A DNA stretch of 64,000 nt from a virus: IMG/VR virus record IMGVR_UViG_3300027816_000057, one strand, 5' to 3'. Under the pieces are notes generated by a model, which was not told the DNA's origin, searched no databases, and worked only from the letters and a program-made list of their open reading frames with translations. This document shows positions 2,566-48,209 of the stretch, one piece after another; within the stretch, counting starts at the first letter, position 1; each line of letters opens with the position of its first letter. The position numbers and the translations under genes were made by a program.

Positions 2566-2897
2566 AACATTTATCATATAATAAAGTTGAATTAAAAGAA
2601 AACATGATAGTCTATCAAATGATGATAGAAGCAAACGGCAATCCAGTATTATTAGAATACAAAGTAACAGAATTATTATTAAATAACAAAATTAAAATTA
2701 AATTCGAAAAAGATATCGATGGTTCAAAAATAACAGAAGAAAAAGAAGTTGACACAGGAAATGTTCACACAAACGGCGGCGAGTTAATCAATATATGGAT
2801 CGAATCTACACGAAAAAAACTACAGCTTACACAAGATTTAATAACCAAACTGGAAAACATGCTTATAAACTCTTCTCAAAAAGAAGTAGAAATATAA
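2562..2897 (+). CDS. hypothetical protein
   Basis: ATGA overlap with the upstream gene; 111-aa ORF. Confidence 0.6.
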   Translation: MKHLSYNKVELKENMIVYQMMIEANGNPVLLEYKVTELLLNNKIKIKFEKDIDGSKITEEKEVDTGNVHTNGGELINIWIESTRKKLQLTQDLITKLENMLINSSQKEVEI

Positions 2898-3739
2898 TGT
2901 TGACTAATATAATCTTTAGTAAAGATCGACCTTGGCAGTTATCTGAGTATCTAAGAACTAGAAAAAAATATATCACTGGAATAGATTCTACATTTATAAT
3001 ATATAAAGCATCTACACAAGAAACTAAAAATAGATATACCAAGCTTTTTAAGAGGCATCCCGAAATTCACGCACTAGAAGAAAATGATTTATACTCATTT
3101 GCTGATCTACTCGAAACCTCGATTAAAAACAGCTATGAGTTTATTCTATTTGGTGTAGACGATGTTCTATTTTATAAACCGGTTGATCTTGGATTTTTAG
3201 TTAAAACCGCTTTGAAGTCTCAATATAATAAAGCATTTTCATTAAGTTTGAGATTAGGTCTTAATATTAACTGGTGTCAACCAGCCAATTCACCATCAAA
3301 ATTACTTGAATCTAACTATAAAATAGATCATAATTTAATCTGTTATTCAAATGTTTATAATCAAGGAGACTGGAATTATCCTTTTGAGGTTTCCGCCTCT
3401 GTCTATCGGAAAGGCGATATAGTAGATTTGCTAAGATTAATCTCTGACAAAGAAGGAAAAATCGGTTACTCACATCCAAATAGATTTGAAGCTGCTGGTG
3501 CTTTAATATGTCAAAATTTAAATTTTCTTAATTTAGCAACCGTTCAAAGTTGTTGCTCTACAATTACTATTAATAGAGTCCAAGATATATATCAAAACTC
3601 TTTAGCGGGACAAGAAGTAGATTTAAATACAACTAATGAATTATTTGATTCTCTACAACAATTTGACGACGAATGGTACGGTAGTCAAAAATTTAATCAA
3701 ATCCATATAGGAGATTTTCGACTTGTGCAAAGTTGTTAA
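2897..3739 (+). CDS. putative GT-A glycosyltransferase
   Basis: IIFSKDRP start, FGVDD (DxD-like), WNYP and PNRFE; probable start is ATG 2897 (TAATG overlap) rather than 2795. Confidence 0.55.
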   Translation: MLTNIIFSKDRPWQLSEYLRTRKKYITGIDSTFIIYKASTQETKNRYTKLFKRHPEIHALEENDLYSFADLLETSIKNSYEFILFGVDDVLFYKPVDLGFLVKTALKSQYNKAFSLSLRLGLNINWCQPANSPSKLLESNYKIDHNLICYSNVYNQGDWNYPFEVSASVYRKGDIVDLLRLISDKEGKIGYSHPNRFEAAGALICQNLNFLNLATVQSCCSTITINRVQDIYQNSLAGQEVDLNTTNELFDSLQQFDDEWYGSQKFNQIHIGDFRLVQSC

Positions 3740-4043
3740 TTTAAGAAAAGAAAAATATACAGTATATTGTGGTAGACCCGGTAAAGGAATAACGTATGCA
3801 CCATTTGGAAATCAATTTATTGTAGGTAAAGACGGAGAACGAGGTGAATGTCGAGAAAAGTTTCGACAATATCTGTTGTCTAACGATAATAAATCTAATA
3901 ACTTATTAGATATAATAAAAAAAATTATCAAAAAAGATGATATCTTGGGATGTTTCTGTGGTGCCGGTAAATGTCATGCTGATTTTATCGCTGCATACGT
4001 TAATTCAGATTTTGATATTGAATCAATAAGAAAAGAACCATGA
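3723..4043 (+). CDS. DUF4326-family protein
   Basis: VY(C)GRP, FGNQF and LGCFC...CHAD signature. Confidence 0.75.
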   Translation: MCKVVNLRKEKYTVYCGRPGKGITYAPFGNQFIVGKDGERGECREKFRQYLLSNDNKSNNLLDIIKKIIKKDDILGCFCGAGKCHADFIAAYVNSDFDIESIRKEP

Positions 4044-4930
4044 AACAAGTTATAACCTCTACGGACTTAAATAAAGATTATTCTTTTTTTATTCCTATTA
4101 TTTATTTTGCTTGGAAAAATTTAGGATACGATTTAAATCTATTTATTAATTGCAGTGTCAGTAATTTAATGGCAAAAAATAATGAAATTCTATTTAAAGT
4201 TTTGAATGAATTAAAAATTAAAAGTATATTCTTACATAATAAAGATTACAATATTCCGCAAGAATACAGTTGGTCGCTATCGCCATTTTCTAGATTATTT
4301 GGCTGCTATTTTGATTTACCGGACAATGATTATCTATTGACTACCGATATCGACATGATACCATTAGACAGCAAATGGTTCAACAGTATCGACGAAAATA
4401 AAATAAATATTTATGGTGAGGACGGATCAACCGGCGGATATGGGCATTCGAGATATCCGATTTGTTATATAGGAATGACGGTGGGTAAATGGAAAAATCT
4501 TATAGGATATGATGTAAAAAAAACACTAAACGAGACAATTAATTATAAATTATCCAACATTCCAAAAACTCTTACTGAAGGACAGTGGCGAAGTTTAGAT
4601 GAAACCTATTTTCATTATTTATTTAGAGATTTAGCATCAGATGAAATGAGAAAATCAGCTATTTTCTATTTTAGATACATGATTCCTAATCCAGCATTTA
4701 AGGGGCATGATAATAAAACCCCATTTATTTTACCAGCAGGAAGAATAGACAGATCAAATTGGGATTTGTCTATGTTACCAACTGCTATTGACGCTCATTG
4801 CCCTAGACCCGGATATAATGATGAAAACTGGTCAAAAATATTACCGATATTAGAAAAATGTTTAACAGATGATCAGTTAAAATATACTAAAAACTATAGA
4901 GAGGAATTTATAAAATGGACTTCCGTCTAG
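4040..4930 (+). CDS. putative nucleotide-diphospho-sugar transferase
   Basis: RLF...LLTTDIDMIP (DxD), YPICYIG, RIDRSNW, IDAH; glycan-island context. Confidence 0.55.
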   Translation: MKQVITSTDLNKDYSFFIPIIYFAWKNLGYDLNLFINCSVSNLMAKNNEILFKVLNELKIKSIFLHNKDYNIPQEYSWSLSPFSRLFGCYFDLPDNDYLLTTDIDMIPLDSKWFNSIDENKINIYGEDGSTGGYGHSRYPICYIGMTVGKWKNLIGYDVKKTLNETINYKLSNIPKTLTEGQWRSLDETYFHYLFRDLASDEMRKSAIFYFRYMIPNPAFKGHDNKTPFILPAGRIDRSNWDLSMLPTAIDAHCPRPGYNDENWSKILPILEKCLTDDQLKYTKNYREEFIKWTSV

Positions 4931-5190
4931 AATCAGCTTTACAAAAAGAAAATATTAAACAGATAAAGTCTTACAGAAAAATGATAGATCAGTGTAAAAA
5001 TGGTACTTTAAAAAATGAATATACTTTTATATCTGATATATCAAGCTTTTTTCAAATTTTTAACTTAATCGAGAAAAAGGAATATAAAAAAGCTCTTTCA
5101 AATTTACAAAATTTAGATAGTGAACCGAGAGATGAATTCCCAAGCAGAATATGGGATTTGCTACATAAAATTAATGGCGAAGAATATTAA
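4915..5190 (+). CDS. hypothetical protein
   Basis: 91-aa ORF in the operon with a GAGG RBS. Confidence 0.55.
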   Translation: MDFRLESALQKENIKQIKSYRKMIDQCKNGTLKNEYTFISDISSFFQIFNLIEKKEYKKALSNLQNLDSEPRDEFPSRIWDLLHKINGEEY

Positions 5191-5191
5191 T

Positions 5192-5797
5192 ATGAATTTT
5201 GATATAGTTGTAGTTTCTAATACGCATCGTAAATCTTTAATTAGTCCATATTTAGATAAATTAAATGTAAAATATCATACGGTTTTTACCCCTGATTATA
5301 ATTTAGAACCCGATTTTCAGGTTAAAAATGAATATAAAAAACTGGTAGCCAATCATTTAGGTGCTTATCGTTGTCTACGGGGGCATCAGCTAGCATTACA
5401 ACATAGTACAAAAGAATTAACTTTAGTATTTGAAGATGATGCGGTACCTAACAGAGAAGACTGGCTAAAATATATTCAAACTTTTATTCATCATTTTAAT
5501 GATGAAAACTGGCTTGAATGTATAAGTTTACATGGGCGTATGTTTGATAGAAAACATTTTACATCAACCAGTAATAATAAAGAAATACTATATCCTATAG
5601 GTACTCCGTTTATTGTGGCGGGTTTAGCTTATTTTATTAATAAATCCGGAAAAGAAAAAGTTTTAAATCACAAATACGACGGTCTACCATTAGACTTACT
5701 TTTATATTGGAAACTAAACTATATATTAGTCGATCCAAGTCCGTTTGATCACGATCGCTCGGAAGGTTCTTTAATAGATGTTGGAATTTATGGATAA
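5192..5797 (+). CDS. glycosyltransferase family 25
   Basis: GAYRCLRGH, LVFEDDA, GLAYFINKSG and PLDLLL motifs; probable start 5192. Confidence 0.7.
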   Translation: MNFDIVVVSNTHRKSLISPYLDKLNVKYHTVFTPDYNLEPDFQVKNEYKKLVANHLGAYRCLRGHQLALQHSTKELTLVFEDDAVPNREDWLKYIQTFIHHFNDENWLECISLHGRMFDRKHFTSTSNNKEILYPIGTPFIVAGLAYFINKSGKEKVLNHKYDGLPLDLLLYWKLNYILVDPSPFDHDRSEGSLIDVGIYG

Positions 5798-6005
5798 TGA
5801 TAATGTTAAAATTTATTCAGATAAAGAAAGAATTGAATATCTTAGAAAATATTTAATAAACGCTAATAAAGCATATTATCAAGATGGCGAACCTGTAATG
5901 ACAGATCAAATGTATGATAGACTATTAAAAGAATTAGAAAAACTAGAACTAAAGAATCCTGAATTATACGATCCTAATTCCCCGACTAAAAAAGTAGGAC
6001 ACTAA
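5790..6005 (+). CDS. stand-alone NAD+-dependent DNA ligase domain Ia (Nlig-Ia)
   Basis: YY.DGEPVMTD.MYDRLLKEL..LE..NPEL..PNSPT..VG matches the LigA N-terminus; stop immediately after. Confidence 0.85.
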   Translation: MDNDNVKIYSDKERIEYLRKYLINANKAYYQDGEPVMTDQMYDRLLKELEKLELKNPELYDPNSPTKKVGH

Positions 6006-6829
6006 TGATACATCCAAAAATAAGAGATAAAAACTTCGCTCATATAAAAAACGCCGGTTATTATGACAATAAAATTGTGTCAAAATATATTGATTGGTAT
6101 AGAGGAGACGAATATCGAGATACCTGCTTTTTTACAGATATATGTCTAACTGAAGTAGATTCCATTCAAGCTAAAACAAAAGTAGCATGGCTTTTAGAGC
6201 CTCCTGCTATTATTGGCGGAAGTTATCAATATATTTTACAAAATCATCATAAATTTGATTATATATTAAGCTTTGTACGAGACTTAGATAAGTATATTCC
6301 AAAAGAAAAACTACTCTTTTATCCGATGGGCGGCTGTTGGATAGAGCCAGAAATCCGACAAATATATTCAAAGACCGCCAAACTCTCTATGATCGCCAGT
6401 AATAAAACTTGGACGGTCGGACATCGTTTGAGACACGAAATAGCGGCAAGATATCCGGGTCAAATAGATTTATTTGGGCGTGGTTACAAAGAAATACTGT
6501 CTAAAAGTGAAGCTCTAAAAAATCATATGTATTCTATTTGCGTTATGAATTCACAAATAGATGATTATTTTACCGATGTTGTAATAGACGCTTTTGCTTG
6601 CGGCACTATCCCTATTTTTTGGGGCACTAATAATCTTGGAAAATATTTTAACTCAAAAGGATTTTATAAGTTTAATACACTAGAAGAATTAGACGTAATT
6701 TTAGATTCTATTTCCGAAGCGGATTATTATTCTAAAATGGAATATATTATGGATAATTTTCAAAGAGTGCAAAACTTTAACACTCCAGAAGATTATATGT
6801 ACGAGAACTATCAACATTTATTTTTATGA
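6005..6829 (+). CDS. GT10 (alpha-1,3-fucosyltransferase-like) glycosyltransferase
   Basis: IASNK, GHRLR, IDLFGRG, MYSICVMNS..DDYFT, GTIPIFWG. Confidence 0.7.
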   Translation: MIHPKIRDKNFAHIKNAGYYDNKIVSKYIDWYRGDEYRDTCFFTDICLTEVDSIQAKTKVAWLLEPPAIIGGSYQYILQNHHKFDYILSFVRDLDKYIPKEKLLFYPMGGCWIEPEIRQIYSKTAKLSMIASNKTWTVGHRLRHEIAARYPGQIDLFGRGYKEILSKSEALKNHMYSICVMNSQIDDYFTDVVIDAFACGTIPIFWGTNNLGKYFNSKGFYKFNTLEELDVILDSISEADYYSKMEYIMDNFQRVQNFNTPEDYMYENYQHLFL

Positions 6830-7368
6830 AATATGAAATTGATACAATAGACGAGTATTTTAAAAATATATTAGACGGAATATGTTTTGGAATAAAACCT
6901 AGAAAAATTCTAGAAACTGGTATTAGATCAGGATTAAGTACATCCGTATTTTTAAAATACATTAATGATAATGGAACTTTAATATCTGTTGATCGAGATT
7001 CTAAAAGTCCTTTTTTGTTTAATTATCAACCAGTAAAAAACCATCAAATTATAATAAAAGATTCTTTAGACTTTTTATCAACTAGCGAAGATACTTTTGA
7101 TCTTATCTTTCTTGACGATTGGCATTCAAAAGATCATGTTTTAAAAGAAATAGAATTATGCGAAAACTTGATACATGAAAGATCGTTAATATTAATTCAT
7201 GATGCTATGTGGGGATGCATTGATCCAAAGTATAATTTTAGTAATCATAATCCTGAATTTGCTGATGGCGGCGTAGCTGCAGCTTTATTAGATTTAGACA
7301 GAAAAAAATGGGAATTCTGCACTATACCTTTTAGTCATGGAATAACAATATTAAGGAAAATACAATGA
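6826..7368 (+). CDS. class I SAM methyltransferase (Methyltransf_24-like)
   Basis: ILETGIRSGLST, FDLIFLDDWH, ILIHD. Confidence 0.8.
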   Translation: MKYEIDTIDEYFKNILDGICFGIKPRKILETGIRSGLSTSVFLKYINDNGTLISVDRDSKSPFLFNYQPVKNHQIIIKDSLDFLSTSEDTFDLIFLDDWHSKDHVLKEIELCENLIHERSLILIHDAMWGCIDPKYNFSNHNPEFADGGVAAALLDLDRKKWEFCTIPFSHGITILRKIQ

Positions 7369-8345
7369 ATTGTTTAGTAGCTGGCGGCGGTGGATTTATC
7401 GGAGGACATTTAGTAAAATCTTTAAAAGAAAGAGGCGATAGCGTTACTGTTGTAGATATTAAATCTATGAGTAATTGGTATCAACCGTTCTATGGTAATT
7501 CTAACATAAGAAATATAGACAACTGCGACTTAAAAAATCAAAATGTTTACGATAATATTTTTCGCGGAACTCGTTATGATATTATTTACAATTTAGCAGC
7601 GGATATGGGAGGAATGGGTTTTATCGAAAATAATAAAACCGCCTGTATGCTGTCGGTATTAATTAATACTAATTTATTAATGGCGGCAAAAACCTTTCAG
7701 GTTAAAAAGTTTCTCTTTTCATCTTCTGCTTGCGTTTACGCTCATAATAAACAAACCGATTCAACAAATCCCGGTCTAAAAGAAGAAGACGCTTATCCAG
7801 CAATGGCCGAAGATGGATACGGTTGGGAAAAATTGTTTAGCGAAAGAATGTGTAATCATTTTTATCAGGATCACGGATTAGAAATCACTGTTCCTCGTTA
7901 TCACAACGTTTTCGGAATTGACGGAACATATACAGGGGGAAGAGAAAAAGCTCCTGCAGCTATTTGTAGAAAAGTAGCTAACGCGGTATTAACCGGAAAG
8001 CACGAAATTGAGATTTGGGGCGACGGTGAACAAACCCGTTCTTTTATGTATGTAGACGATTGCATCCAAGGTATCCATAAATTAGTTGAATCAAACTATA
8101 GACAACCTATTAATCTCGGATCATCCGAAATGGTAAGTATTAATCAAATGGTTACTATGGTAGAAGAAATAGCTGGAGTCAAACTAAATCGTGTCTATAA
8201 ACTAGACGCACCCAAGGGTGTTCGCGGTAGAAACAGTGATAACACTTTGATTAAATCAGTATTAAACGGTTGGGAGCCATCTATTAAATTAAGAGACGGT
8301 TTAGAAAAAACCTACAAATGGATTTACGATCAATTAAAAGTATAA
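7365..8345 (+). CDS. GDP-mannose 3,5-epimerase-like NAD-dependent epimerase
   Basis: GGGGFIG, NLAADMGGMGFI, SSSACVY, YGWEKL, GGREKAPAAICRK and GVRGRNSDNTLI are characteristic of GME. Confidence 0.85.
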   Translation: MNCLVAGGGGFIGGHLVKSLKERGDSVTVVDIKSMSNWYQPFYGNSNIRNIDNCDLKNQNVYDNIFRGTRYDIIYNLAADMGGMGFIENNKTACMLSVLINTNLLMAAKTFQVKKFLFSSSACVYAHNKQTDSTNPGLKEEDAYPAMAEDGYGWEKLFSERMCNHFYQDHGLEITVPRYHNVFGIDGTYTGGREKAPAAICRKVANAVLTGKHEIEIWGDGEQTRSFMYVDDCIQGIHKLVESNYRQPINLGSSEMVSINQMVTMVEEIAGVKLNRVYKLDAPKGVRGRNSDNTLIKSVLNGWEPSIKLRDGLEKTYKWIYDQLKV

Positions 8346-8357
8346 TAAGGATATAAA

Positions 8358-9203
8358 ATGAAGTATTTAATTTTAGGATCAGAAGGACAGATAGGAAGTT
8401 CTCTATCTAAATATTTAACAGAATCTGGACATACGGTAAAAACTATTGATTATGTTAATAGTATTCATGAGGATTTAAGACTAAAAGATTCTACACTTCT
8501 TCATTCATATATGAACGAATGTGATTTTGTTTATTTTCTAGCTTTTGATGTTGGCGGAAGTAGATATCTTAAAAACTATCAATTTACTAAAGATTTTATT
8601 GATAATAATTTAGATATAATGCGTAATACATTTCAAATGCTAGATGAGCATAGTAAACCTTTTATTTTTACATCTAGCCAGATGTCTAATATGAATCATT
8701 CACCATACGGTGTTCTTAAAAGACTAGGAGAATTTTATACTGACGCCATAGGTGGAGTCAATGTAAAATTTTGGAATGTATTTGGAATAGAAAAAGATCG
8801 TGAAAAATCCCACGTTATTACCGATTTAATACTTAAGGGAATTAAAAATCAACGCATTGATCTTTTAACTGACGGAAAAGAAAAACGCCAAATGCTATAC
8901 GTTAAAGATTGTTGTCGTGCATTGTTTACATTAAGTCAAAAATACAATACCATAAAAGATAGAATTAATAAACCGGTATTGGATATAACTAATTTTAAAT
9001 GGAATACAATCGGAGAAATAGCTTATTTAATTTCTAAGCATATGAACAATATACCAGTTAATTTTAGTCATACATCAGACGATGTTCAAAAAGAAATATA
9101 TAATGAACCAAGTGCGGATATTTTAGAATATTGGCAACCGTTATTTAGTGTTGAAGATGGTATAAAAGAAATGGTAGATTATTATGTTAAGAGTCATTGG
9201 TAA
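8358..9203 (+). CDS. NAD-dependent epimerase/dehydratase (extended SDR)
   Basis: GSEGQIG Rossmann motif, YGVLK (YxxxK), NVFG, RQMLYVKD. Confidence 0.75.
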   Translation: MKYLILGSEGQIGSSLSKYLTESGHTVKTIDYVNSIHEDLRLKDSTLLHSYMNECDFVYFLAFDVGGSRYLKNYQFTKDFIDNNLDIMRNTFQMLDEHSKPFIFTSSQMSNMNHSPYGVLKRLGEFYTDAIGGVNVKFWNVFGIEKDREKSHVITDLILKGIKNQRIDLLTDGKEKRQMLYVKDCCRALFTLSQKYNTIKDRINKPVLDITNFKWNTIGEIAYLISKHMNNIPVNFSHTSDDVQKEIYNEPSADILEYWQPLFSVEDGIKEMVDYYVKSHW

Positions 9204-9831
9204 TAGTCACGCTGGAATTTTTTCTGGAAAACAGCAAAATTGGGCCACTTGGCCCGGTAAATGCATAGATACTATTGTAAATGTTAAATCATTTCAGCTA
9301 GGGCCAATTATAGCTTATAATTTTTACGAACATCATCTTCCGAAAGTATACGAAATTATCAACGCTGACCCCCCTTTAAAACATGATTGGTATTTATTTA
9401 CAGTAGGCGAAGTTGATTGTCGCTGGCACATACCTTTTCAGTCTGATAAGAAAAAAGTAAGATTTGAATCTGTTGTAGAGGAATGTTGTGACAGATATTT
9501 TAAAGCACTATTAGATTTAAAAAATAAAAAAATAAATGTTGCTGTATGGGGTGTACACCCGTCAACATCTTCCGGTCATAATGAAGATCCGGATAATCCT
9601 GTTTTTGGAGATTTCTTATTAAGAAACAGTATATCTGAATATTGGAATTCATATAGTGATTATTTATGTCGTTTGTACAAAATTCCGTTTATCTCAATAT
9701 ATTATGATTTATTAAATAATGATTTTACTAGAAAAGACGAGTATTTTCTAGATTATTGTCATTTATCTGAAAAAGCTTTACCTATTATTAAAGGAAAAAT
9801 TAATTCATGGATTCCAGAATTGCATCTATAA
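9184..9831 (+). CDS. SGNH/GDSL-like esterase or acyltransferase
   Basis: IGNSH block I, GEVDCR, C-terminal DYCHL (DxxH). Confidence 0.6.
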   Translation: MLRVIGNSHAGIFSGKQQNWATWPGKCIDTIVNVKSFQLGPIIAYNFYEHHLPKVYEIINADPPLKHDWYLFTVGEVDCRWHIPFQSDKKKVRFESVVEECCDRYFKALLDLKNKKINVAVWGVHPSTSSGHNEDPDNPVFGDFLLRNSISEYWNSYSDYLCRLYKIPFISIYYDLLNNDFTRKDEYFLDYCHLSEKALPIIKGKINSWIPELHL

Positions 9832-10535
9832 AAGAACATTTTTTAAACTGTTTTGAAGAACTTAATTACGAGTGGCTACACAAAGAACAAAAAATACAGC
9901 ATCCAATACATAACGGAAAACAAATAGTAACATATGCAGTATTACACAATTTAGTTAAGTTTCTTAAACCGAAAAAAATCCTAGAAATAGGCACTTGGGA
10001 ATATCATTCAGCGAATGTTATGGCTCTAGCCTCCGATTCGGTACAAAGAATAGATACTTTTGATATAAGAAGCGGTGGTTATAACGGAAATACAAATGCG
10101 GTTAAAAGATCAAATAAGATCGATAATTACGTTTGGCGACCATTTCACACTTCTTATGATTGTTGGAAATACGAAAACTCGGATTTAAAAGATTTCATTT
10201 ATATGAGTAATGGTCAAATTTTTGAATTTAATTTAGCTCAATTAAAATCGGTCTGTGGTTTTTACTCTGATCCTCCAGAGGACAAATATGATTTTATTTT
10301 TATTGACGGAGATCATTCATATAAAGGTTTAGAATTCGATTTATCTTTAGTTCATCATGTAGCATCAAAAAATGCAATTATAGTAATTGATAATATTCTT
10401 GATGAAAGACTGTCAGATGTTAATAAAATGTGGCAAAATATAGTAGAGACTAACAAATATCTAACATATGATTTTTCTGATTGGAATCAAAAAGAAAAAG
10501 ACAGAATCATAGAAATGGGTATTATTATTATATGA
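9807..10535 (+). CDS. class I SAM methyltransferase (Methyltransf_24-like)
   Basis: ILEIGTW, YDFIFIDGDHSY, IVIDN. Confidence 0.8.
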   Translation: MDSRIASIKEHFLNCFEELNYEWLHKEQKIQHPIHNGKQIVTYAVLHNLVKFLKPKKILEIGTWEYHSANVMALASDSVQRIDTFDIRSGGYNGNTNAVKRSNKIDNYVWRPFHTSYDCWKYENSDLKDFIYMSNGQIFEFNLAQLKSVCGFYSDPPEDKYDFIFIDGDHSYKGLEFDLSLVHHVASKNAIIVIDNILDERLSDVNKMWQNIVETNKYLTYDFSDWNQKEKDRIIEMGIIII

Positions 10536-11218
10536 TAACAAGAAGCGAAATTGTAGATAAATGTCCTAATCTAGTTTGCGTAGATCACGGAGAGGGTAAT
10601 GCTCATAAAGCATTAAAAATGAATAATCACGATCTTCCTATTTCTATAAGTGAAAAAGAAATACAGTATTTAATAAATTATATTCAAGATAATAAATTAA
10701 AATACGGTTTTGATTTAGCAACAGCTTTTGGTATTTCCGCACTAGCTTTAAGTCTAGGGGTGTTAAAAAATAATGGATATGTAATAAGCATGGACTGTTA
10801 TGCAGAAGAGAAAAACCAAAAAATGCCATACGGAGAATCGGAATTAAATTCTGATTGGCAAAACAGCGATGGTTATAAAACCGCGTCATATATAAAAAAT
10901 AAATTTGAATTAAATAATCTTTTTTTAGAAGCAGGGGTTAACCCAAAAGATACAGACAGTAAACTAAAAGTATTTACAGAAAATTATTCTAAAATAGATA
11001 TTGCGATTTTAGATTGTCCAAAAAATGACGAAGATTTTATAAACACTTGGAAAGTATTAATACAATATCTAGATGATAGATTTGCTGTTTTTGTACATGA
11101 TACGCACGCCTTTCGTGGATCAGCTAAAGAATTTTTGGAAAAAGAATACGGTTTAACGTGGCGTAATGTCATGCCTGAAGAAAGATATCCGTTTGTTGTT
11201 ATAGAAAAAAATATATGA
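10532..11218 (+). CDS. class I SAM methyltransferase
   Basis: FDLATAFGISA, IDIAILD, VFVHD; probable start 10532 (ATGA overlap). Confidence 0.7.
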   Translation: MITRSEIVDKCPNLVCVDHGEGNAHKALKMNNHDLPISISEKEIQYLINYIQDNKLKYGFDLATAFGISALALSLGVLKNNGYVISMDCYAEEKNQKMPYGESELNSDWQNSDGYKTASYIKNKFELNNLFLEAGVNPKDTDSKLKVFTENYSKIDIAILDCPKNDEDFINTWKVLIQYLDDRFAVFVHDTHAFRGSAKEFLEKEYGLTWRNVMPEERYPFVVIEKNI

Positions 11219-11832
11219 AATGGACAATAGGAATTGTTTTTGGACCAAACTATCCTCTTTATAGAAATACTATCATAGAAAGTATCAAGCAAAATTTTGA
11301 CGGAGACAATTGCCAGATTATCGAAATAGGAAAAGTCAACTCAATAATACCTCCAACTTTTATTGATGATCTTTTAATTAATTTTGACGACGATGATAAA
11401 CCGGCGTGGATAACTAAAAAAAAGAATTTAGTAGCTCAAAACGCCAAATATGAAAACTTATGTATAATGCACGATTATATCATACTTAATGATAATTGGC
11501 TAAATGGATTTAAAGATTTTTACGATTGGGATGTTTGTATGAATCCAATCTACACAATCGATAATTTAAGATTTAGAGATTGGGTAACTTGGGAACCCGT
11601 CACTTTTGTAGACTATAAAGACCAGTCTAAGACGCAAGATATGTATGTTAGCGGCTCCTATTTTTGCGTTAAAAAACAATTTTTACTAGACAATCCTTTA
11701 GACGAGACTAAAAGATGGGGTGAAAGCGAAGATGTAGAATGGTCATTAAGATGTAGAAAAAAGTGGAATTATAAATGTAATTCAAATTCTAGTGTTAGAT
11801 TACTAAAATGGAAGGACCGCTATCCAATATGA
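11215..11832 (+). CDS. glycosyltransferase family 2-like
   Basis: WITKKKN, CIMHDY, SGSYF, WGESEDVEWS.R. Confidence 0.7.
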   Translation: MKWTIGIVFGPNYPLYRNTIIESIKQNFDGDNCQIIEIGKVNSIIPPTFIDDLLINFDDDDKPAWITKKKNLVAQNAKYENLCIMHDYIILNDNWLNGFKDFYDWDVCMNPIYTIDNLRFRDWVTWEPVTFVDYKDQSKTQDMYVSGSYFCVKKQFLLDNPLDETKRWGESEDVEWSLRCRKKWNYKCNSNSSVRLLKWKDRYPI

Positions 11833-39368: not shown

Positions 39369-40385
39369 TTAGAAGCTGGCTAGGAGAGTGGTTCTAGAGT
39401 CTAACTGAGCGAAACCGACTTCCATCCAACCGTACATTTCATTCAAGCCTTGACGATGTTTGGTATTATCTTCAAACATTTGTAGATTTTCACGAATAGG
39501 CATGACGAAGCTGTTATTTTTGCTCTTATCAATACCGATTGCTAGTTCTACGTCACCAGATGCTAGTGATTTACCTAAAGTTGAGCTGTAATATAGTTGA
39601 TATTCTTGACCAACACCAAGTTCATCTAAATCTCTTAGTTCGACACCAAAGATTTTAGTCATTTCACGACCGTTATCATCAGTGTAATAGATGTTAGTAC
39701 GGACTTGATCAGGAATCAAGTTTAGATTCCAAGAACGAATATCATCTAGAGCTTCTGGTGAGAGATAAAGATGAGTTAGTTTACCGCGATTAACTGAGGT
39801 AGAGTTACCACCACCGTTTCTACGCATTACTGTTTTGAGCAATGTGACTAATCTTGGGGTAAATTGACCTGCGGCTGCATCAGGATCGTAAACTAAGATG
39901 TTACGAGATACACCGGCTGATATGATGGTGTTAAAACCGTCATCGTTCAATTTCTTTTTGAAACCAGCTTCGAGAACTTCTACCATTCTAGCTAGAACAT
40001 TCCAGTTTGCATCTCGTAAGAATTTACGAGTACAACCAATAGAGTTGCCTATCATATAGGTAGGAATTTCTATGATACTATCGGATGTTACGAGCTTGGT
40101 AGGTATACCACCGTGATCTGGTAGTGTAAAAGCGTAAAATTCTTTTTCAGTACCCGGTTTGATCAAGTCGGTTGGATATTTAACGGGTGATCCGTCAGTG
40201 TAATCTTCAACCGTAAAGATATCGCCAAGTATATCGCCAGTCAAAACTGTTTGGCGAATAGGTGTTTCTAGTGCTTTAGAAACTTCAACACCGGCTTCTC
40301 TCGATTTGGAAGGATCGTTTGATCCCCAATCGTTTAACTTGGCTTTAATCTGTAGTTTTTCTTCGTTGCTAAATTCAAATGGCAT
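39369..40385 (-). CDS. major capsid protein (HK97 fold)
   Basis: 338 aa after scaffold and decoration genes; long spine helix, LYLSPE, C-terminal GW.EVGFA.LD; followed by a terminator. Confidence 0.8.
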   Translation of the reverse strand: MPFEFSNEEKLQIKAKLNDWGSNDPSKSREAGVEVSKALETPIRQTVLTGDILGDIFTVEDYTDGSPVKYPTDLIKPGTEKEFYAFTLPDHGGIPTKLVTSDSIIEIPTYMIGNSIGCTRKFLRDANWNVLARMVEVLEAGFKKKLNDDGFNTIISAGVSRNILVYDPDAAAGQFTPRLVTLLKTVMRRNGGGNSTSVNRGKLTHLYLSPEALDDIRSWNLNLIPDQVRTNIYYTDDNGREMTKIFGVELRDLDELGVGQEYQLYYSSTLGKSLASGDVELAIGIDKSKNNSFVMPIRENLQMFEDNTKHRQGLNEMYGWMEVGFAQLDSRTTLLASF

Positions 40386-40407: not shown

Positions 40408-40875
40408 TTAAAAATCAACGCGAACTTTAACATAACCGTCTTCATCAGGACGAGAACGGAATTGTCCTATAGCTGGGGCACCCTGAGCCTGTACTGAACT
40501 AATTAATCCGCTAGCACCTAGATAGGCAGGCTGACCAATTAATACAGACGCGGCTGTATTTGGTACGATTGAGTTGGTTGTAACTTCACCGGCACGAATA
40601 ATAGAAGCTCTGTTACCAACTTGTACTTCGAGTCTTTCTGAGAGTAAACGATTACGAGTTAAATCGATGTTTACAAATTCATTATTTAGTACGCCAAGCG
40701 GATATCGGCCTGAAGGATTAACTGCAACATCAGCTAGTTGGTTAAAACTATCCATAGCTGCACCTGAACCGGGGGCACCGGTAGTTGCTACTAGGAAAGT
40801 GCCACGGGCGGCGGTTTGGTTAAGGAAAAATTCTGTTTCCCAACTTCTAACATTCATATCTGGTTTAAGTGCCAT
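40408..40875 (-). CDS. capsid decoration/cement protein
   Basis: Beta-tulip-like G.PAYLG..G...IG.F....DEDGYVKV; between scaffold and MCP. Confidence 0.65.
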   Translation of the reverse strand: MALKPDMNVRSWETEFFLNQTAARGTFLVATTGAPGSGAAMDSFNQLADVAVNPSGRYPLGVLNNEFVNIDLTRNRLLSERLEVQVGNRASIIRAGEVTTNSIVPNTAASVLIGQPAYLGASGLISSVQAQGAPAIGQFRSRPDEDGYVKVRVDF

Positions 40876-42350: not shown

Positions 42351-44327
42351 TTATACACCTTGACTTAACAAAAACGCCTCTATCTTTAATGTGTCTTTGT
42401 CTTCTTTAGATACTTTATCGGTTTTTAAATCCGATAAAAGTTCTCTAAAAATATTATTAAATTTATTATATTTATCATAATTAATACTAGCGATTATTTT
42501 TTCTGGATCATTTGAATCGTTTAGACTGGCATTAGCAAACGTATGATCAATTAAATTCTCTAGTTGATCCTTTTGGTCTTGTGTTAATTTCTTAACATTA
42601 CTCACTTCATAATGTTCAATAATAATAGAAGTTATCTTTTCTTCTATTTCTTGATAGATGTTTTTAGCTAATATTATTTCTGACGCTTTTCGTTTTCTTG
42701 GTTCTTTATCTTTTGATCCAGATGGTCTTCCCGGTCTTTGATTATATGAATCTTGTATAGACATATTACTAGAATTGTCTTTACTGTTCATTTTTTGAAC
42801 TTTTAGTTCATGTTCTTGCTGATATTTTAAGTCAGGATTATGATAAGGACTAGCTTTAGGAGGTAATTCATCCTTATCTCTTTTTTCTTCTTGTTTTTGA
42901 ATTCTCAATCTTTCCAAGAAGGGGTTTTCGCCTAAATATTCAATAACTTTATCTTCTGATAAGATATTTCTATCGGCCAAATCCATTAATACTTTGACGT
43001 GTACATTATCATCAGTAAAATTAGGTATTCTAAATTTTACTAAAGGTTTATCACTAAAACCCATATTATTATGTATAATGTTAATTTCAAAATTAAGCCA
43101 TTCTAGTAACCGATCTCTTACTATCGCTAATTTTGTTACTAATGATTTAGTACGCATAGCCGGATTATTACCGGTCATGCTTTTGGTAGGACCACCAATA
43201 AGTTCTTCAGGAAAACCAAATACTAAATATATATTAGTGTTATCATCCGTTAATTGAGACAACTTTTCAATCGGTGGATAATACTCAGAATATTCTAACA
43301 GAGTATCCCATATTAAATCAAATGGACCGGCAGATGTATTATTATCTAATAATCCCGCAAGCTTATTAGCAACGGCTGGACTTGGCAAAATCCCTTCTTT
43401 GTGATCCCCTAATTTCCATATTCTTAAAGGATGGGCGTAAGCATCTAACGCAAAACTTTTAGCGGCATTTAAACGTTGATTATAAACTATATCAGGCAAT
43501 ACCGGTTTAATTAAAGGTATGCCCCAAGGTTCTAAATCTTCTTTTTTATACCAAGAAACATAAATATCTTTTTCAGGTAGAGGGTAATAAATAAATCTTT
43601 CTGAAATGTTTTCTTTTAAAGACTTTTTAATTACTTCAGGTATATCATCTAAAACTTGTTTTTCTAATGTAGTCTTAGCATTATTTAATTTTAACAGATA
43701 TTCTCTGTTTAAACGTAAACCGTAAATTTTCTTTTCAGAAAACGCACCGGCTACATCTCCGACGATTTCAATATTTCTCGGTTGATAAAAACGATATTTA
43801 ATTGGTATTCTTTTAGATTTCTTTTTTGGCGGTTGATTTAAATTTTCCGCAATTGATTTATCGTCTCTCTTCATTTGTGCGATATCTTGTGGCTGTAAAT
43901 CCACATAATATCTTTGTAATACAACATTACATTCTCTAAAAAGATGGGTAGCAAATTGCTGGCACCGTTCTTTTAATCCAACTTTATCCATCCAAACACG
44001 ATAAAAATTATTAATACCTTGATCGCTGTGGTAAATATCTAATCCGTCAATAACTAATTCAACCATCGAATCAACTACACTCCGTAAAACGGATGATCCG
44101 TAATACGCTGCGTAACACTGAGTAAATAAATCATAGTGAGTCTTAGGAGATTCCAAAGATAACCGTAGACCAAAAAAATCGCTATAGTTTGATTCTGATC
44201 TTACTCTAACGTTGTCCTCGATAGACTCGTATGCTTTAGTTTTTGTAACACCGCCTCCAAAAGAATTATTAGAAGCAACGGTTTTTTGATGAGTATCAAG
44301 TCTTTTTGGTGTAATTTTCTTTTTCAT
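42351..44327 (-). CDS. portal protein
   Basis: Between TerL and protease; YY...LRSVVD.M, PWGIPLI, IWKLG; probable start ATG 44327. Confidence 0.75.
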   Translation of the reverse strand: MKKKITPKRLDTHQKTVASNNSFGGGVTKTKAYESIEDNVRVRSESNYSDFFGLRLSLESPKTHYDLFTQCYAAYYGSSVLRSVVDSMVELVIDGLDIYHSDQGINNFYRVWMDKVGLKERCQQFATHLFRECNVVLQRYYVDLQPQDIAQMKRDDKSIAENLNQPPKKKSKRIPIKYRFYQPRNIEIVGDVAGAFSEKKIYGLRLNREYLLKLNNAKTTLEKQVLDDIPEVIKKSLKENISERFIYYPLPEKDIYVSWYKKEDLEPWGIPLIKPVLPDIVYNQRLNAAKSFALDAYAHPLRIWKLGDHKEGILPSPAVANKLAGLLDNNTSAGPFDLIWDTLLEYSEYYPPIEKLSQLTDDNTNIYLVFGFPEELIGGPTKSMTGNNPAMRTKSLVTKLAIVRDRLLEWLNFEINIIHNNMGFSDKPLVKFRIPNFTDDNVHVKVLMDLADRNILSEDKVIEYLGENPFLERLRIQKQEEKRDKDELPPKASPYHNPDLKYQQEHELKVQKMNSKDNSSNMSIQDSYNQRPGRPSGSKDKEPRKRKASEIILAKNIYQEIEEKITSIIIEHYEVSNVKKLTQDQKDQLENLIDHTFANASLNDSNDPEKIIASINYDKYNKFNNIFRELLSDLKTDKVSKEDKDTLKIEAFLLSQGV

Positions 44328-44330
44328 AAT

Positions 44331-44349
44331 ATTGCGATTAAATCGCAAT
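44331..44349. promoter_or_regulatory. perfect 9-bp inverted repeat between the promoter motif and the portal start
   Basis: ATTGCGATT-A-AATCGCAAT. Confidence 0.55.
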
Positions 44350-44366: not shown

Positions 44367-46421
44367 CTATAATCGATCAACCAACTGAGAGGTTACAATT
44401 CTCATTTTTTTGCCATTTGTCGTGATATAGGCGGGTTGATTGGTGCCACTATTACTTTTAGTATTTCGAGTAGCACCAATAGCAGAGTAGTTTATGTGAT
44501 TTGACAATTCATTATGCATAACTCGAATACCATAATTAGCCAATAATATAGAAGTAAATCGGTCTTTTTTGAGTTTTTCTTTAGTATTATCATTAGAAAT
44601 TAATGATATTTTAGGAACATCCCATCTTTCTTGCCCGCCGCCGGTTTCAGTTCTTTTAATACAAATAGTCTCTTGTTTAGCACTTTCTATTTCAAGATAG
44701 CAATCTTCAAGAGATTCGTATTTTCTTTTATAGTTGACGTTATCCATTTGTGCTACAGCTACAGAATCAAATTCTGGAAATAAAAATCTTCTATCTTCTA
44801 AATCTTTCTTTAAACCATAATGAGATTCTTTTCTCCAGTCAGAATTTTGGAAATTAATCATAGTTAAAATATGAAGTCCCGGCATATGAATAAAGTTTTC
44901 ATCGTCTTTATCGTATATCGGTAAATCTCCCGACTCCATTTTATCAGGATCGTGTAAACCTTCTTTAAGGGAAATACCTCCACCGCCAGCATCACAAATA
45001 ATAGATTCAATATTAAATCGGCGAATTAACGATCTTATATGTTTAATTATAAAAGTATTATAATCTTTAATAGATTCGTCTATAATCCCGTCATTTTTCA
45101 TTTGATTAAATTTCTTTCTATTAGTAGACCAAGTATATACCAAAACTCGATAATTACCATGATCTTCAACTATAGAAATTGCAAAATTATCATCTTCTGA
45201 GGCGGGGTCGATACCCATAACGTATTTAAATTCTTTTTCGCCTGATATTTTAGCACTATGTCTAATAACCTGACCCAAACCTTTAATTGGGCAAGTGCAA
45301 TCAAATAATAATCTGGCTGGATAAAATCCGTCTGAATCTGACGGAAAAACGCATCCGTATTCTTGCTGGAAAATTTGTTTAACCATTGTTGCCTTACCTT
45401 GTTCTAGAATGTCTTGATCTAACATTCCTTTTGGAGCAAGAGTATAAGGCAGTCTCATAATAGCATACTGACTAGTATCTAATTTAGTAATATCTAATTC
45501 TAGTTCCGGATAATTTTGATCGATAAACCTTTGATCGCCACCGGATTCGATAATAGCTTTGTATCTTTTAAAATACTTATAAAAAGATCCAAATTGAAAG
45601 GTAGCGGTTCCTTGAATTATAATTTGGTTTCCGCCTAAACTGGTTTGTGTAGGTATTTTAGGATTTAATATTTGATTATCGTCAGTAATACCTAATTTAC
45701 GCATTTCATCTGTTCTATATGCGTTTTTAATATTTTGAATAAAATTAGTAGTCTTAACTGCAGCGAAACCTCGAATAACTGTTTCAAAAACCTCAGTACT
45801 AATACTGCCGAATTCTTCAGCACATATTATTTCAGCACGTTCACCACGGATAGTTTCGCCGTCACCAAGCGGTAGGAATTTAATTACACTTTCGCCACAA
45901 TGCCAATATGCATTAGTTACGCCTCTTTTTGGTGCATTTTTCTTTCCTACTATATCTTGAAGAACAGGTGCGTTATTCCATATATTTGTTATATAGTTAA
46001 AAACTATCAAAGCTTGACGAAAAGCGGCACCGACAACTGCTATTCTAATTCCCGGATTTAACAACGCTCGGATCATTAAATACCAAGCGGTAGTAAAACT
46101 TTTAGCATAACCACGAGACGCAATCAACATAGGAAATTGTTTTTTCCATAACATTTGCACAATAGCCATATGTTCTGGAGTGGTATCTAAATTAAGTATT
46201 TCTTTAGCTATAAAATGTAGGTAATTTGGATCACGCATGAATTGAACCAAAGAATCTATATAGGTGTTTTTATTATAAAATTCCGGTTTAAAAAACGGAT
46301 TCATGACCGACATCTGCGAAACATCTCCTAATTGGAGATAAGCTAAATCTAAAGTTTCGCTATTAATACGTTTATGATCGCTATGTATAGAAAGCAGGTT
46401 ATCGGTAATTTTATTACTCAT
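44367..46421 (-). CDS. terL: terminase large subunit
   Basis: Walker A SRGYAKS, IRGER, Walker B-like ICAEEF, FQQEYG..F, RNase H GIDPA and KDRF. Confidence 0.85.
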   Translation of the reverse strand: MSNKITDNLLSIHSDHKRINSETLDLAYLQLGDVSQMSVMNPFFKPEFYNKNTYIDSLVQFMRDPNYLHFIAKEILNLDTTPEHMAIVQMLWKKQFPMLIASRGYAKSFTTAWYLMIRALLNPGIRIAVVGAAFRQALIVFNYITNIWNNAPVLQDIVGKKNAPKRGVTNAYWHCGESVIKFLPLGDGETIRGERAEIICAEEFGSISTEVFETVIRGFAAVKTTNFIQNIKNAYRTDEMRKLGITDDNQILNPKIPTQTSLGGNQIIIQGTATFQFGSFYKYFKRYKAIIESGGDQRFIDQNYPELELDITKLDTSQYAIMRLPYTLAPKGMLDQDILEQGKATMVKQIFQQEYGCVFPSDSDGFYPARLLFDCTCPIKGLGQVIRHSAKISGEKEFKYVMGIDPASEDDNFAISIVEDHGNYRVLVYTWSTNRKKFNQMKNDGIIDESIKDYNTFIIKHIRSLIRRFNIESIICDAGGGGISLKEGLHDPDKMESGDLPIYDKDDENFIHMPGLHILTMINFQNSDWRKESHYGLKKDLEDRRFLFPEFDSVAVAQMDNVNYKRKYESLEDCYLEIESAKQETICIKRTETGGGQERWDVPKISLISNDNTKEKLKKDRFTSILLANYGIRVMHNELSNHINYSAIGATRNTKSNSGTNQPAYITTNGKKMRIVTSQLVDRL

Positions 46422-46863
46422 CTAATTTTCTTTCTATTTCCTTGAATAAACGATAAACGTAGTTTTCAGCTTCTTCTATATTTGGAAAAAATAATATATC
46501 TACATTATAATTAACTTGTAAATAAGCTAATTGTTTATAAATAAAATTTAAACTTAATTTTGTTAATCCTCTGTCAACTAGATATGAAAAATTATTTGGA
46601 CCACAAACTATAATTTGTTTATGTTTATATTTTTGTAATCCGTCCATTTCTCTGCAAAAACGCTCAAATTCACTTCCTAAATTATTAATTAATTCTCGAC
46701 AATTTTTTTTACGCTCAATAATAACTGATTCGTCAAAATCAGGATGGTCGCAAATAGCTAAAGTATAATCCCCGTACTTTAAAGAATCATTACTAATTTT
46801 TACATCAGTATAATCTTTAAAATTAAATCCGTCTTTTTCTTTAGTATCTTTAATCACCAACAT
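46414..46863 (-). CDS. ERCC4/XPF-Mus81-family nuclease
   Basis: DTKEK, L..GDY, IIERK, RF..E. Confidence 0.75.
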   Translation of the reverse strand: MLVIKDTKEKDGFNFKDYTDVKISNDSLKYGDYTLAICDHPDFDESVIIERKKNCRELINNLGSEFERFCREMDGLQKYKHKQIIVCGPNNFSYLVDRGLTKLSLNFIYKQLAYLQVNYNVDILFFPNIEEAENYVYRLFKEIERKLDE

Positions 46864-47185
46864 TTTTCTTGCGATCTTTTAATAAAACCTTTTTCAAAAA
46901 AACCACTTCAAATCTTTTTTCTTTTCCGTATGTTTTCTGGTGGCATTTTTTACAAAGAGTTATACCATTATACACGTTGTATCTTAAATGTGGATCGTCG
47001 GCCCATTTTTTGATATGATGTATCTGTAAATCTTCTTTAGCCTGACATTTATTAAAACCTTGGCAAGTATGATCGTCTCTTTCTAAAACTTGATTTCTCC
47101 AGTTTTTATATTTAGCAGACCCAATATCTCGTTCTAATTGACGCAATCTTTTGCTGGTTGTATATTTAATTTTTGGTATAAACAT
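46850..47185 (-). CDS. HNH endonuclease (terminase-associated)
   Basis: WR..VLERD..TCQ, LQIHHI, NGITLC..CH. Confidence 0.85.
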   Translation of the reverse strand: MFIPKIKYTTSKRLRQLERDIGSAKYKNWRNQVLERDDHTCQGFNKCQAKEDLQIHHIKKWADDPHLRYNVYNGITLCKKCHQKTYGKEKRFEVVFLKKVLLKDRKKNVGD

Positions 47186-48209
47186 ATTTATTTTGCTCTG
47201 TATTAATCATCCATTTTACTACTTCGGTAAAACTCATTCCCGCTTCCCACCCTAATATCTTATACGCTTTTTTTGAATTACCAACTAGATTAACTGGCTC
47301 AATAGGCCGATATAAGTCTTTTTCTATATATATAATTTGATTACCGGTTTTTTTATCTATCCCTTTTGTATTTATACCATGACCGACAAATTCTAATTCA
47401 ATTCCAGCTTCTCGAAAAGCTAATAAACATAATTCTTTAATGGAATACTGTTTTCCGGTAGAAAGTATATAATCATCTGGTTTATCTTCTTGTAAAGACA
47501 GATACATACCTTCGACATAAGACGGAACATCGCCCCAATCTCTTAAACTATCTAAATTACCAAGAGGAAGTTGAGTTTTAATTAAACCTAAAGAATATTT
47601 TACAGCGTATTCTACAATTTTTTTAGTAACAAAACGGTTAGATCGTCTTGGTGAATCGTGACCATAAGCAATAATATTGCTAGCGAATATACCATAAGCC
47701 TGTCTATAAATTTTTACCATATTATAAGCAAAAAGTTTAGATGCTCCATACGGTGAGACAGGAATCATATGAGTATCTTCATTTTGCGGGCTATCTTTTG
47801 ATCCAGCAAACATATCAGATGTTCCTATTTGACAAAATTTAGTTAAAGGAGATATTTTTCGGATTAATTCCAGTATATTTAATACTGACTTTCCATTAAC
47901 ATCTAGTGTCGCGTCAGGCTGTGAAAAAGACATTCCCGGATGACTAAAGGCTGCTAAATTATAAAATTCATCTGGTTTTAATTCTAATAAATTAAATAAA
48001 GTTGATTCATCGGTTATATCACCTTTTATAATTGATATCTTATCACGATCTAAATTACAATCATTGATAAAATCAGTAGAACCGTCATTTGATGATTCTC
48101 TTACTAAACCATAAACATGATAACCTTTTTCTATTAACAAAGAAGCTAAATAGGGGCCGCTTTGACCGTTAATCCCCGTTATTACTGCTGTCTTCCCGCG
48201 ATTTAGCAT
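47166..48209 (-). CDS. gmd: GDP-mannose 4,6-dehydratase
   Basis: ITGINGQSG.YL, YNLAA.SH, SPYGASK, FVTKKI, LGNLDSLRDWG, YRP.E...LVG. Confidence 0.85.
   Translation of the reverse strand: MLNRGKTAVITGINGQSGPYLASLLIEKGYHVYGLVRESSNDGSTDFINDCNLDRDKISIIKGDITDESTLFNLLELKPDEFYNLAAFSHPGMSFSQPDATLDVNGKSVLNILELIRKISPLTKFCQIGTSDMFAGSKDSPQNEDTHMIPVSPYGASKLFAYNMVKIYRQAYGIFASNIIAYGHDSPRRSNRFVTKKIVEYAVKYSLGLIKTQLPLGNLDSLRDWGDVPSYVEGMYLSLQEDKPDDYILSTGKQYSIKELCLLAFREAGIELEFVGHGINTKGIDKKTGNQIIYIEKDLYRPIEPVNLVGNSKKAYKILGWEAGMSFTEVVKWMINTEQNKYVYTKN

Follow-up and report, generated by a model that had tools for sequence, protein, structure and literature searches.

What does a tailed phage build with a long run of sugar genes, and on what acceptor is the product built? 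The question is raised by a stretch of 64,000 nucleotides from IMG/VR virus record IMGVR_UViG_3300027816_000057 (the window, taken at its full length), which comes from a low-G+C (about 30%) uncultured tailed phage. A sugar island lies on its plus strand (2897-14900), and a gene for GDP-mannose 4,6-dehydratase (Gmd) lies on the minus strand, within the packaging genes. The original prediction took these genes for a virion O-glycosylation system that attaches a methylated, possibly acylated glycan at Ser-Gly and Thr-Gly dipeptides ([S/T]-G). We find that a coherent phage glycan-synthesis system is real. It combines a conserved core of glycosyltransferases (GTs) with a Gmd gene among the packaging genes and an exchangeable tailoring island, one member of which is a GDP-mannose 3,5-epimerase (GME). 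Our favoured reading, held tentatively, is cytoplasmic synthesis of a glycan on an acceptor intrinsic to the phage, probably its virion proteins. The link between the glycan system and the [S/T]-G bias is offered as a hypothesis, not as a finding.

The window was compared with four long relatives: G001 (125 kb), G002 (86 kb), G003 (63 kb) and G004 (156 kb, 99% complete). All five share the same gene order in the structural module. Near-identity and protein searches for isolated relatives gave no megablast match, and the closest TerL, from Bacillus Basilisk-like phages, is only 22% identical. Directly upstream of the annealase gene, each of the four relatives carries a block of four soluble transferases, three of the GT-B fold (about 560, 370 and 330 aa) and one of family GT2 (about 237 aa). 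Identity within the block is 35-53% between relatives, comparable to that of the major capsid protein (MCP; 51-57%). The truncated first open reading frame (ORF) of the window, at 2-268, matches the gene that follows the GT2 of the block, so by synteny the window's own block should lie just before base 1. An IMG/VR search with the conserved GT-B alignment returned the same clade only. No relative without GTs was found among the four, all of which carry the block; G002, which has no island at the sugar-island site, was considered as an island-less control and rejected, since it carries both the four-GT block and Gmd.

The island itself changes from genome to genome. G001 has two GT10, two GT47/RXYLT1-like and one GT25 gene with one methyltransferase instead of the window's set, and G003 and G004 share a HAD/nucleotidyltransferase/cupin/WavE cassette. 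The position also moves: the cassette follows the SSB gene in the window and G001, and stands between the annealase and SSB genes in G003 (9822-16276) and G004 (92372-100003). The four-GT block is the core set of the clade and the island its variable accessory set; the sugar cassette behaves like a mobile or exchangeable unit.

The Gmd gene does lie inside the late packaging operon, as predicted, and it overlaps the adjoining gene on either side. Two near relatives, L001 and L002 (TerL 82% identical), and two distant ones, L003 and L004 (33%), have the same Gmd-HNH-ERCC4-TerL order, and the long contigs G002, G003 and G004 have it too. The G001 contig stops short of this region, and Gmd was counted only in relatives that reach it, every one of which has the gene. 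The protein retains the GxxGxxG motif, the catalytic Thr and YxxxK. In the window lineage alone (the window and L001), TSD stands for TSE, with Asp replacing the catalytic Glu, and GHDS for NHES; the relatives have the canonical Glu and NHE, and solved enzymes likewise show [ST]xE and NHES. These look like conservative changes at two substrate or catalytic acid positions, and by its family features the protein is a Gmd whose acid is Asp and whose activity is predicted.

For the island, the original prediction listed about six GT-like genes, nucleotide-sugar enzymes, three methyltransferases and an SGNH protein over about 12 kb. Pfam, NCBIfam and PDB sequence searches, with an AlphaFold2 (AF2) model, show this to be a fair tally (Table 1): there are four to six soluble GT-like genes, GME, a second short-chain dehydrogenase/reductase (SDR), three methyltransferases, an SGNH-like protein and the HAD/nucleotidyltransferase/cupin/WavE cassette. 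The GME assignment comes from phmmer matches to the Arabidopsis enzyme 2c59 and to 8sg0 (E 1e-85, residues 4-324), with UDP-glucose 4-epimerase as the runner-up family at E 4e-32. The protein matches plant and algal GME over the full length and differs in being encoded by a phage. A full-text literature search for the enzyme name with 'phage' gave no paper on a phage GME, a search that the punctuation in the name may limit. The nucleotidyltransferase, cupin and HAD proteins could, as a guess, form a split route of GDP-mannose supply.

Among the transferases, the first (2897-3739) has the clearest fold. Its AF2 model, from a 43-sequence alignment, reaches pLDDT 95.4 and matches POMGnT1, GnT-I, GnT-II, TarS and WrtF with VIA Z scores of 13.2 to 11.5; the DD motif is invariant and an orthologue is present in G001. 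The protein has no Pfam match, and neither it nor the product of 4040-4930 matched any PDB sequence. One of its ESM Atlas structure neighbours bears PF08759 (GT-D, DUF1792), whereas the AF2 model matches PDB enzymes of the GT-A fold; the Atlas hit probably reflects the GT-A domain that bifunctional proteins carry. For 4040-4930, clusters of GT8 and of nucleotide-diphospho-sugar transferases are among the feature and structure neighbours in the ESM Atlas, which we take as a lead only.

The original prediction also noted that no flippase or polymerase is visible. This holds, by Pfam families and hydropathy, for the island and the four relatives, and likewise no priming transferase or ABC exporter was found in them. 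The 19-residue hydropathy maximum is below 1.8 for every protein of the glycan module in the window and G001-G004, with the exception of the S1 protease-like protein at 11808-12515, whose N-terminal membrane anchor or signal (2.52 at residue 13) is the sole such segment in the island. That protein has no homologue in G001-G004, is distinct from the SGNH protein and is not obviously part of the glycan pathway. Membrane proteins of the GtrABC/Oac type (flippase, bactoprenol-linked GT2 with transmembrane helices, integral transferase) were absent from the window island and G001-G004. The lack of transmembrane segments, flippase, polymerase, exporter and priming transferase is evidence against a self-contained system of the surface-polysaccharide or Gtr type.

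Under our favoured reading, the window would hold the accessory part of a clade-wide, phage-encoded, cytoplasmic glycan pathway. GDP-mannose would be converted to derived sugars, L-galactose or L-gulose plus a 6-deoxyhexose; these would be methylated and perhaps acylated, and an oligosaccharide would be built on an acceptor that can be reached from the cytoplasm, the likeliest being virion proteins of the tail, the baseplate or the head accessories. The acceptor is most likely intrinsic to the phage, because the GT core and Gmd are conserved like structural genes in genomes of 30-43% G+C and come with no export or lipid-carrier genes, and the place of Gmd in the packaging operon suggests the same. 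A Gmd fixed in that operon and four GTs as conserved as the capsid gene point, further, to an acceptor that is essential. What was predicted about the glycan thus survives in part: genes to make and tailor unusual GDP-sugars are there, including those for methylation and possibly acylation, and its attachment to the virion stays a proposal.

The dipeptide bias was the predicted mark of the acceptors. We compared [S/T]-G counts with 2000 composition-preserving shuffles per protein, in 50 tests. The four manual counts given in the prediction, and its count of the reverse G-S/G-T, were all exact on recount, and the concentration in tail and accessory proteins that they were taken to show is borne out for one of the four proteins only, the 632-aa protein at 20932-22830 (29 [S/T]-G against 12.1 expected, z 5.7, p < 0.0005; G-[S/T] 15 against 12). 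The other three are explained by composition or are not robust: the 205-aa tail protein has 9 against 4.5 (p 0.014, which fails multiple testing over the 50), or 20 against 11.1 with its G001 orthologue, and the excess is not significant at 15228-15833 (p 0.17) or 38831-39295 (p 0.09). With the 632-aa protein removed, the window virion proteins have observed/expected (O/E) ratios of 1.23 for SG and 1.24 for TG (z below 2), and the baseline of the clade's non-structural genes is 1.16-1.20. When all window virion proteins are pooled, SG and TG reach z of about 3, no more extreme among the 400 dipeptides than IP or ID.

Pooling over the five genomes raises some further proteins, with z values that are inflated and to be read as upper bounds because orthologues are not independent: the two major tail proteins (342 aa, O/E 1.64, z 4.2; 312 aa, O/E 2.05, z 5.4) and the 155-aa head-module protein (33 against 13.8, O/E 2.39, z above 4). 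In the window alone the tail proteins give p 0.04 and 0.09, and the head-module protein has 4 against 1.9. Most of the apparent [S/T]-G enrichment is amino-acid composition.

The 632-aa protein is different. A full HMMER scan gave about 55 homologues, each from a separate 50%-identity cluster, and these hold 1660 [S/T]-G against 847 expected (G-[S/T] 886), with z above 3 in 48 of the 55. By dipeptide, O/E is 2.31 for S-G, 1.58 for T-G, 0.95 for D-G and 0.65 for N-G, which is depleted. The orthologues in G001-G004 keep the bias (observed/expected 27/13, 34/17, 35/17 and 31/16). As controls, 344 ORFs of T4, T5, lambda, SPP1 and Basilisk reached at most z 3.3 (T4 gp34 and gp37, T5 pb1 and lambda J near 0), 173 ORFs of P22 and CBA120 at most z 3.6 (beta-helix tailspikes near 0), and in 38 tail-fibre loci taken from other uncultured phages none of the 256 ORFs with a length of 250 aa or more exceeded z 4. 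The excess in this family is real, beyond composition or generic fibre or beta-helix architecture.

The sites have a common context, hydrophobic-x-[A/P/V/S]-[S/T]-G-[I/V]-x-hydrophobic, with alternating hydrophobic residues on their flanks, Ile and Val enriched after Gly, and Ala, Pro and Val enriched before Ser/Thr. The longer forms [S/T]-G-S and [S/T]-G-x-T are not among the enriched ones: position +2 favours Ile or Val, and Thr shows no enrichment at +3. An alignment of 27 full-length members has 18 columns with [S/T]-G in at least half of them, and these columns hold 40% of the sites; rarely shared columns hold 27%. Ser and Thr interchange freely in the conserved columns, one of which has 14 T and 13 S with Gly invariant. 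In the AF2 monomer model, which is poor (pLDDT 61, pTM 0.31), ten sites lie 1-4 residues ahead of predicted strands. The motif fits a hydroxyl-specific turn ahead of beta-strands, as a conserved turn in a folded beta-protein, and it might double as a site for glycan attachment.

Past the terminase region, G003 and G004 hold some fibre-like ORFs that have no sequence relationship to this family and also reach [S/T]-G z 4-6. ORFs with an excess of this size and no relation to the 632-aa protein lie at 55477-57096 and 58216-59631 of G003, 141271-144592 of G004 and 3088-6388 of G002; one of them is parallel beta-helix-like and another has a glycoside-hydrolase-like C-terminal half. Residues 375-401 of the 632-aa protein form a motif of about 27 residues (GVN..IT.LQGLTTPLSI.QGGT) that recurs with 50-80% identity in tail-fibre genes on about 38 IMG/VR contigs with no other relationship (L051-L088); it would seem to be a fibre module in wide use.

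Several results weigh against a virion acceptor. One is the placement of a promoter-like motif. The motif GTGTATAA, then T/A, occurs ten times in the window, always on the minus strand and inside the structural module (15840, 27524, 33078, 34294, 36256, 39302, 40896, 42351, 44354 and 46968), mostly directly upstream of gene starts, and it looks like a late promoter element of the extended -10 type. None was found in the sugar island, which shares its strand with the replication and recombination genes and, for want of the motif, is apparently transcribed with them rather than from late-type sites. (An early motif, GATANAAT, was not enriched in the window, and a generic scan of the window for sigma-70 promoters and terminators was uninformative.) As predicted, the portal, scaffold and MCP have few [S/T]-G: none shows an excess, and with TerL and Gmd they have pooled O/E of 0.7-1.1. 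The context of the dipeptide is that of a folded beta-protein. None of the transferases resembles a known protein-initiating O-glycosyltransferase, and the modelled one at 2897-3739 matches no more than the generic GT-A fold; the Pfam and NCBIfam scans of the island named no TibC/Aah-family transferase, no search having been aimed at that family. In the MCP and the major tail proteins, the C-terminal 45 residues are ordinary and form no Ser/Thr-rich extension. Finally, large aquatic phages often carry lipopolysaccharide (LPS)-type clusters of unknown target.

Host-envelope remodelling is a possible though doubtful alternative, in which the enzymes act at the inner membrane face on lipid-linked intermediates of LPS, capsule or teichoic acid. 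The surface of the infected cell would be altered, with effects such as superinfection exclusion or progeny that do not stick to debris. The best family matches are indeed of LPS type (WavE, GT10, GT25-like, and a GT-A fold like that of TarS/TarP), the island is co-oriented with early and middle genes without the late motif, and its content differs between relatives, as expected if it is matched to different host glycans. Against this reading, the four-GT block and Gmd are kept at 30-43% G+C, a range that suggests different hosts and so argues for a host-independent acceptor, and Gmd sits within the packaging operon. Nor does the island or any of the four relatives supply a flippase, polymerase, ABC exporter, priming phosphoglycosyltransferase or GtrA/B/C-type protein.

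A narrower proposal has the phage transferases O-glycosylate tail and accessory virion proteins at [S/T]-G (in practice [S/T]-G-[I/V/L]) as their acceptor motif, and we consider it unlikely. The excess is directional, with G-[S/T] at expectation, and specific for hydroxyl residues, and Ser and Thr interchange at conserved columns. The sites in rarely shared columns indicate turnover at a kept density, and several unrelated fibre-like ORFs of the relatives show the same excess. Bacterial autotransporter heptosyltransferases, which glycosylate Ser within folded beta-helix repeats, are a precedent for a folded acceptor. Yet in the window one protein alone survives multiple testing with the rest at baseline, the pooled virion proteins do not stand out from other dipeptides, and the 40% of sites that are positionally conserved, hydrophobic-flanked and just ahead of predicted strands have the marks of a structural turn. 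An equally good explanation for the depletion of N-G with the gain of S-G could be that long-lived particles avoid turns prone to deamidation. No GT-free relative was found as a control, and no initiating enzyme was recognised.

The sugar genes might instead be metabolic or auxiliary, redirecting host nucleotide-sugar pools or yielding a glycoconjugate that is soluble or secreted, without a defined macromolecule of phage or host as acceptor. This is improbable: confident assignments exist only for the nucleotide-sugar enzymes (GME, Gmd and the nucleotidyltransferase), as this proposal would have it, but the number of transferase genes, eight to ten, and the clade-wide conservation of four of them at 35-53% identity imply that an ordered oligosaccharide is built on a specific acceptor. 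Least probable of all is DNA hypermodification, in which the transferases would assemble their glycan on a modified base in the phage genome, for although LPS- and teichoic-acid-like phage transferases do glycosylate DNA with 5-hydroxymethylcytosine (5hmC) or 5-hydroxycytosine (5hoC) (bioRxiv 10.1101/2023.12.21.572611; PMC13326640), and the island adjoins recombination and replication genes and has only soluble glycan enzymes, both published routes need a ThyA homologue, or a C5-methylase with a TET-type dioxygenase, and neither G001-G004, of which G004 is 99% complete, nor the window in its annotated parts yielded a ThyA, C5-methylase or Tet/JBP gene (PF00303 and PF00145 absent from G001-G004, with positive controls; PF12851 absent, without a positive control).

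Among known systems, the DNA glycan hypermodification clusters also use soluble LPS- or teichoic-acid-like GTs, make mono- to trisaccharides and sometimes lie beside structural genes (bioRxiv 10.1101/2023.12.21.572611; PMC13326640); the modification genes on which they depend set them apart. Wzx/Wzy- or ABC-dependent loci have a priming transferase, flippase/polymerase and exporter families, and multi-pass proteins, none of which Pfam or hydropathy found in the island, and seroconverting GtrABC/Oac phages have membrane components that hydropathy did not find in the window island or G001-G004. To our knowledge, glycosylation of tailed-phage virions has been proved experimentally only for some mycobacteriophages. 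In virions of the Che8 type, as described in PMC12619734 (which cites Freeman et al. 2023), the glycans are at the C-termini of capsid and tail-tube subunits. The likeness is a tailed phage with soluble GTs of its own that could decorate virion proteins in the cytoplasm. The differences are that the capsid and tail proteins here lack Ser/Thr-rich C-terminal tails, and with them the C-terminal acceptor region, that the MCP shows no excess of the motif, and that this phage additionally encodes nucleotide-sugar synthesis and tailoring.

Two other systems come closer in gene content. The chlorovirus PBCV-1 encodes Gmd, an SDR partner, sugar O-methyltransferases and soluble GTs, uses no host membrane machinery and carries glycans rich in methylated 6-deoxy sugars. 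It resembles the phage in having Gmd, SDR, sugar O-methyltransferases and several soluble transferases; it differs as a giant virus of eukaryotes with N-linked glycans on its major capsid protein, whereas the phage has a bacterial host, an MCP that is not implicated, and GME, WavE and GT10-like genes. Large marine cyanophages carry LPS or cell-surface clusters of unknown target with Gmd, SDR epimerases and several transferases, and the likeness to them is the presence of such genes in a large lytic aquatic phage. Here, unlike there, Gmd is fixed in the packaging operon, a four-GT core is clade-wide and a tail family has a hydroxyl-specific dipeptide bias. The architecture of the clade, in which GME is carried and cassettes are swapped around a conserved GT core, is of interest in itself.

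The coordinates are collected in Table 1. Outside the glycan genes, the early region encodes a Dam-like N6-adenine methyltransferase (49969-50793), an R2K ATP-grasp protein (51915-52721), a SLOG-like protein (53174-53692) and a NADAR-domain protein (57578-58018), which with the DUF4326 protein of the island suggest a nucleotide or NAD-derived chemistry separate from the glycan question. The TerL orthologue of G001 (122459-125224, minus strand) is encoded by an ORF of 921 aa. Its match to the window TerL is interrupted by about 1 kb, where an element such as an intein or nuclease domain may have been inserted. G002 has a full-length gene of the IMPDH/GMP-reductase family amid its replication genes (15998-17113, L097; E 2e-89), of which window 1747-2565 is a short and weak relative.

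Table 1. Features of the window and, for the four-GT block, of the four relatives
Feature	Position	Strand	Evidence and remarks
Annealase, Whirly-like SSB, then sugar island	282-14900	+	
GT-A fold glycosyltransferase, 280 aa from Met at 2897	2897-3739	+	AF2 model
DUF4326 protein	3723-4043	+	PF14216 E 8e-17; 50% identical homologue in G003
Probable GT-A/GT8-like glycosyltransferase	4040-4930	+	ESM Atlas lead only; orthologue in G001
Weakly GT25-like protein, FEDDA motif	5120-5797	+	No Pfam match; pairwise BLASTP E 0.003 to G001 GT25-family protein across EDD region
GT10-like (fucosyltransferase C-terminal domain)	6005-6829	+	PF00852 E 2.3e-5, 24.5 bits, cut-off 23.9; 33% homologue at another place in G004
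Sugar O-methyltransferase-like (Methyltransf_24/CmcI)	6826-7368	+	PF13578 E 1.8e-14; PF04989 E 8e-8
GDP-mannose 3,5-epimerase (GME)	7365-8345	+	phmmer
Second extended SDR, weakly Fcl-like	8358-9203	+	PF01370 E 6e-22; NCBIfam GDP-fucose synthase E 3e-9, far under its cut-off
SGNH/GDSL-like, cytoplasmic, weak; possible sugar O-acyl esterase or transferase	9184-9831	+	PF13472 E 0.015; no hydrophobic segment; GNSH and DxxH-like motifs read from sequence
Methyltransferase (Methyltransf_24)	9807-10535	+	PF13578 E 1.3e-9
Third methyltransferase-like, weak	10481-11218	+	PF13578 E 1.3e-3, under cut-off; homologues in G003, G004
Island protein, acidic DxD-like motifs	11215-11832	+	No family match; 43% identical homologue within G003 sugar cassette
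S1 (trypsin-like) protease-like	11808-12515	+	GDSGG and CHH motifs; PF00089 E 0.19, residues 36-207
WavE-family (LPS-core type) putative transferase	12505-13173	+	PF07507 E 1e-13; WavE also in G004
HAD, beta-phosphoglucomutase family (sugar-phosphate mutase or phosphatase)	13170-13778	+	PF13419 E 4e-29; TIGR02009 E 2e-26; 38-43% homologues in G003 and G004
Sugar-1-phosphate nucleotidylyltransferase	13775-14557	+	PF00483 E 5e-11; PDB 4evw E 1.5e-10, Man-1-P guanylyltransferase 2x5s E 4e-5, other sugar-1-P transferases too
Cupin, sugar isomerase/epimerase candidate	14514-14900	+	PF00190/PF07883 E about 1e-4 to 1e-5; homologues in G003, G004
Structural and packaging module	14889-49673	-	
632-aa baseplate/tail-fibre family protein	20932-22830	-	Weak PHROG tail-fibre and baseplate matches
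205-aa tail protein	27487-28104	-	[S/T]-G excess fails multiple testing
Tape measure	28104-33029	-	PF10145
Major tail protein, 342 aa	35202-36230	-	Moderate pooled [S/T]-G excess
Major tail protein, 312 aa	36265-37203	-	Moderate pooled [S/T]-G excess
MCP	39369-40385	-	
155-aa head-module protein between scaffold and MCP	40408-40875	-	Pooled [S/T]-G excess
Portal	42351-44348	-	
TerL	44367-46421	-	
ERCC4	46414-46863	-	
HNH	46850-47185	-	
GDP-mannose 4,6-dehydratase (Gmd)	47166-48209	-	PF16363 E 5e-95; PDB 2z1m E 5e-85
Small early genes and tRNAs	from 49725	+	
Four-GT block	G001:71933-77297 (L012); G002:32305-37223 (L098); G003:4356-9282 (L102); G004:86711-91865 (L093)		GT1/GT4-type GT-B and GT2

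In the fullest form of the idea, phages of the clade use the four-GT core, Gmd and the swappable island to glycosylate, in the cytoplasm, the proteins of their tail, baseplate and head accessories, the acceptor being [S/T]-G-hydrophobic at turns that precede strands. We think it unlikely to hold as a whole. If it were true, the system would be a phage counterpart of autotransporter or chlorovirus glycosylation, with a coat of methylated rare sugars on its tail proteins, and glycosylation of particles would be widespread in environmental phages. Acceptor motifs in folded proteins would then be usable, and the glycan would be diversified by exchange of cassettes, with a bearing on adsorption, on particle stability and on recognition by defences or grazers. 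Independently of the acceptor, the phage-encoded GME and the Gmd of the packaging operon are concrete points.

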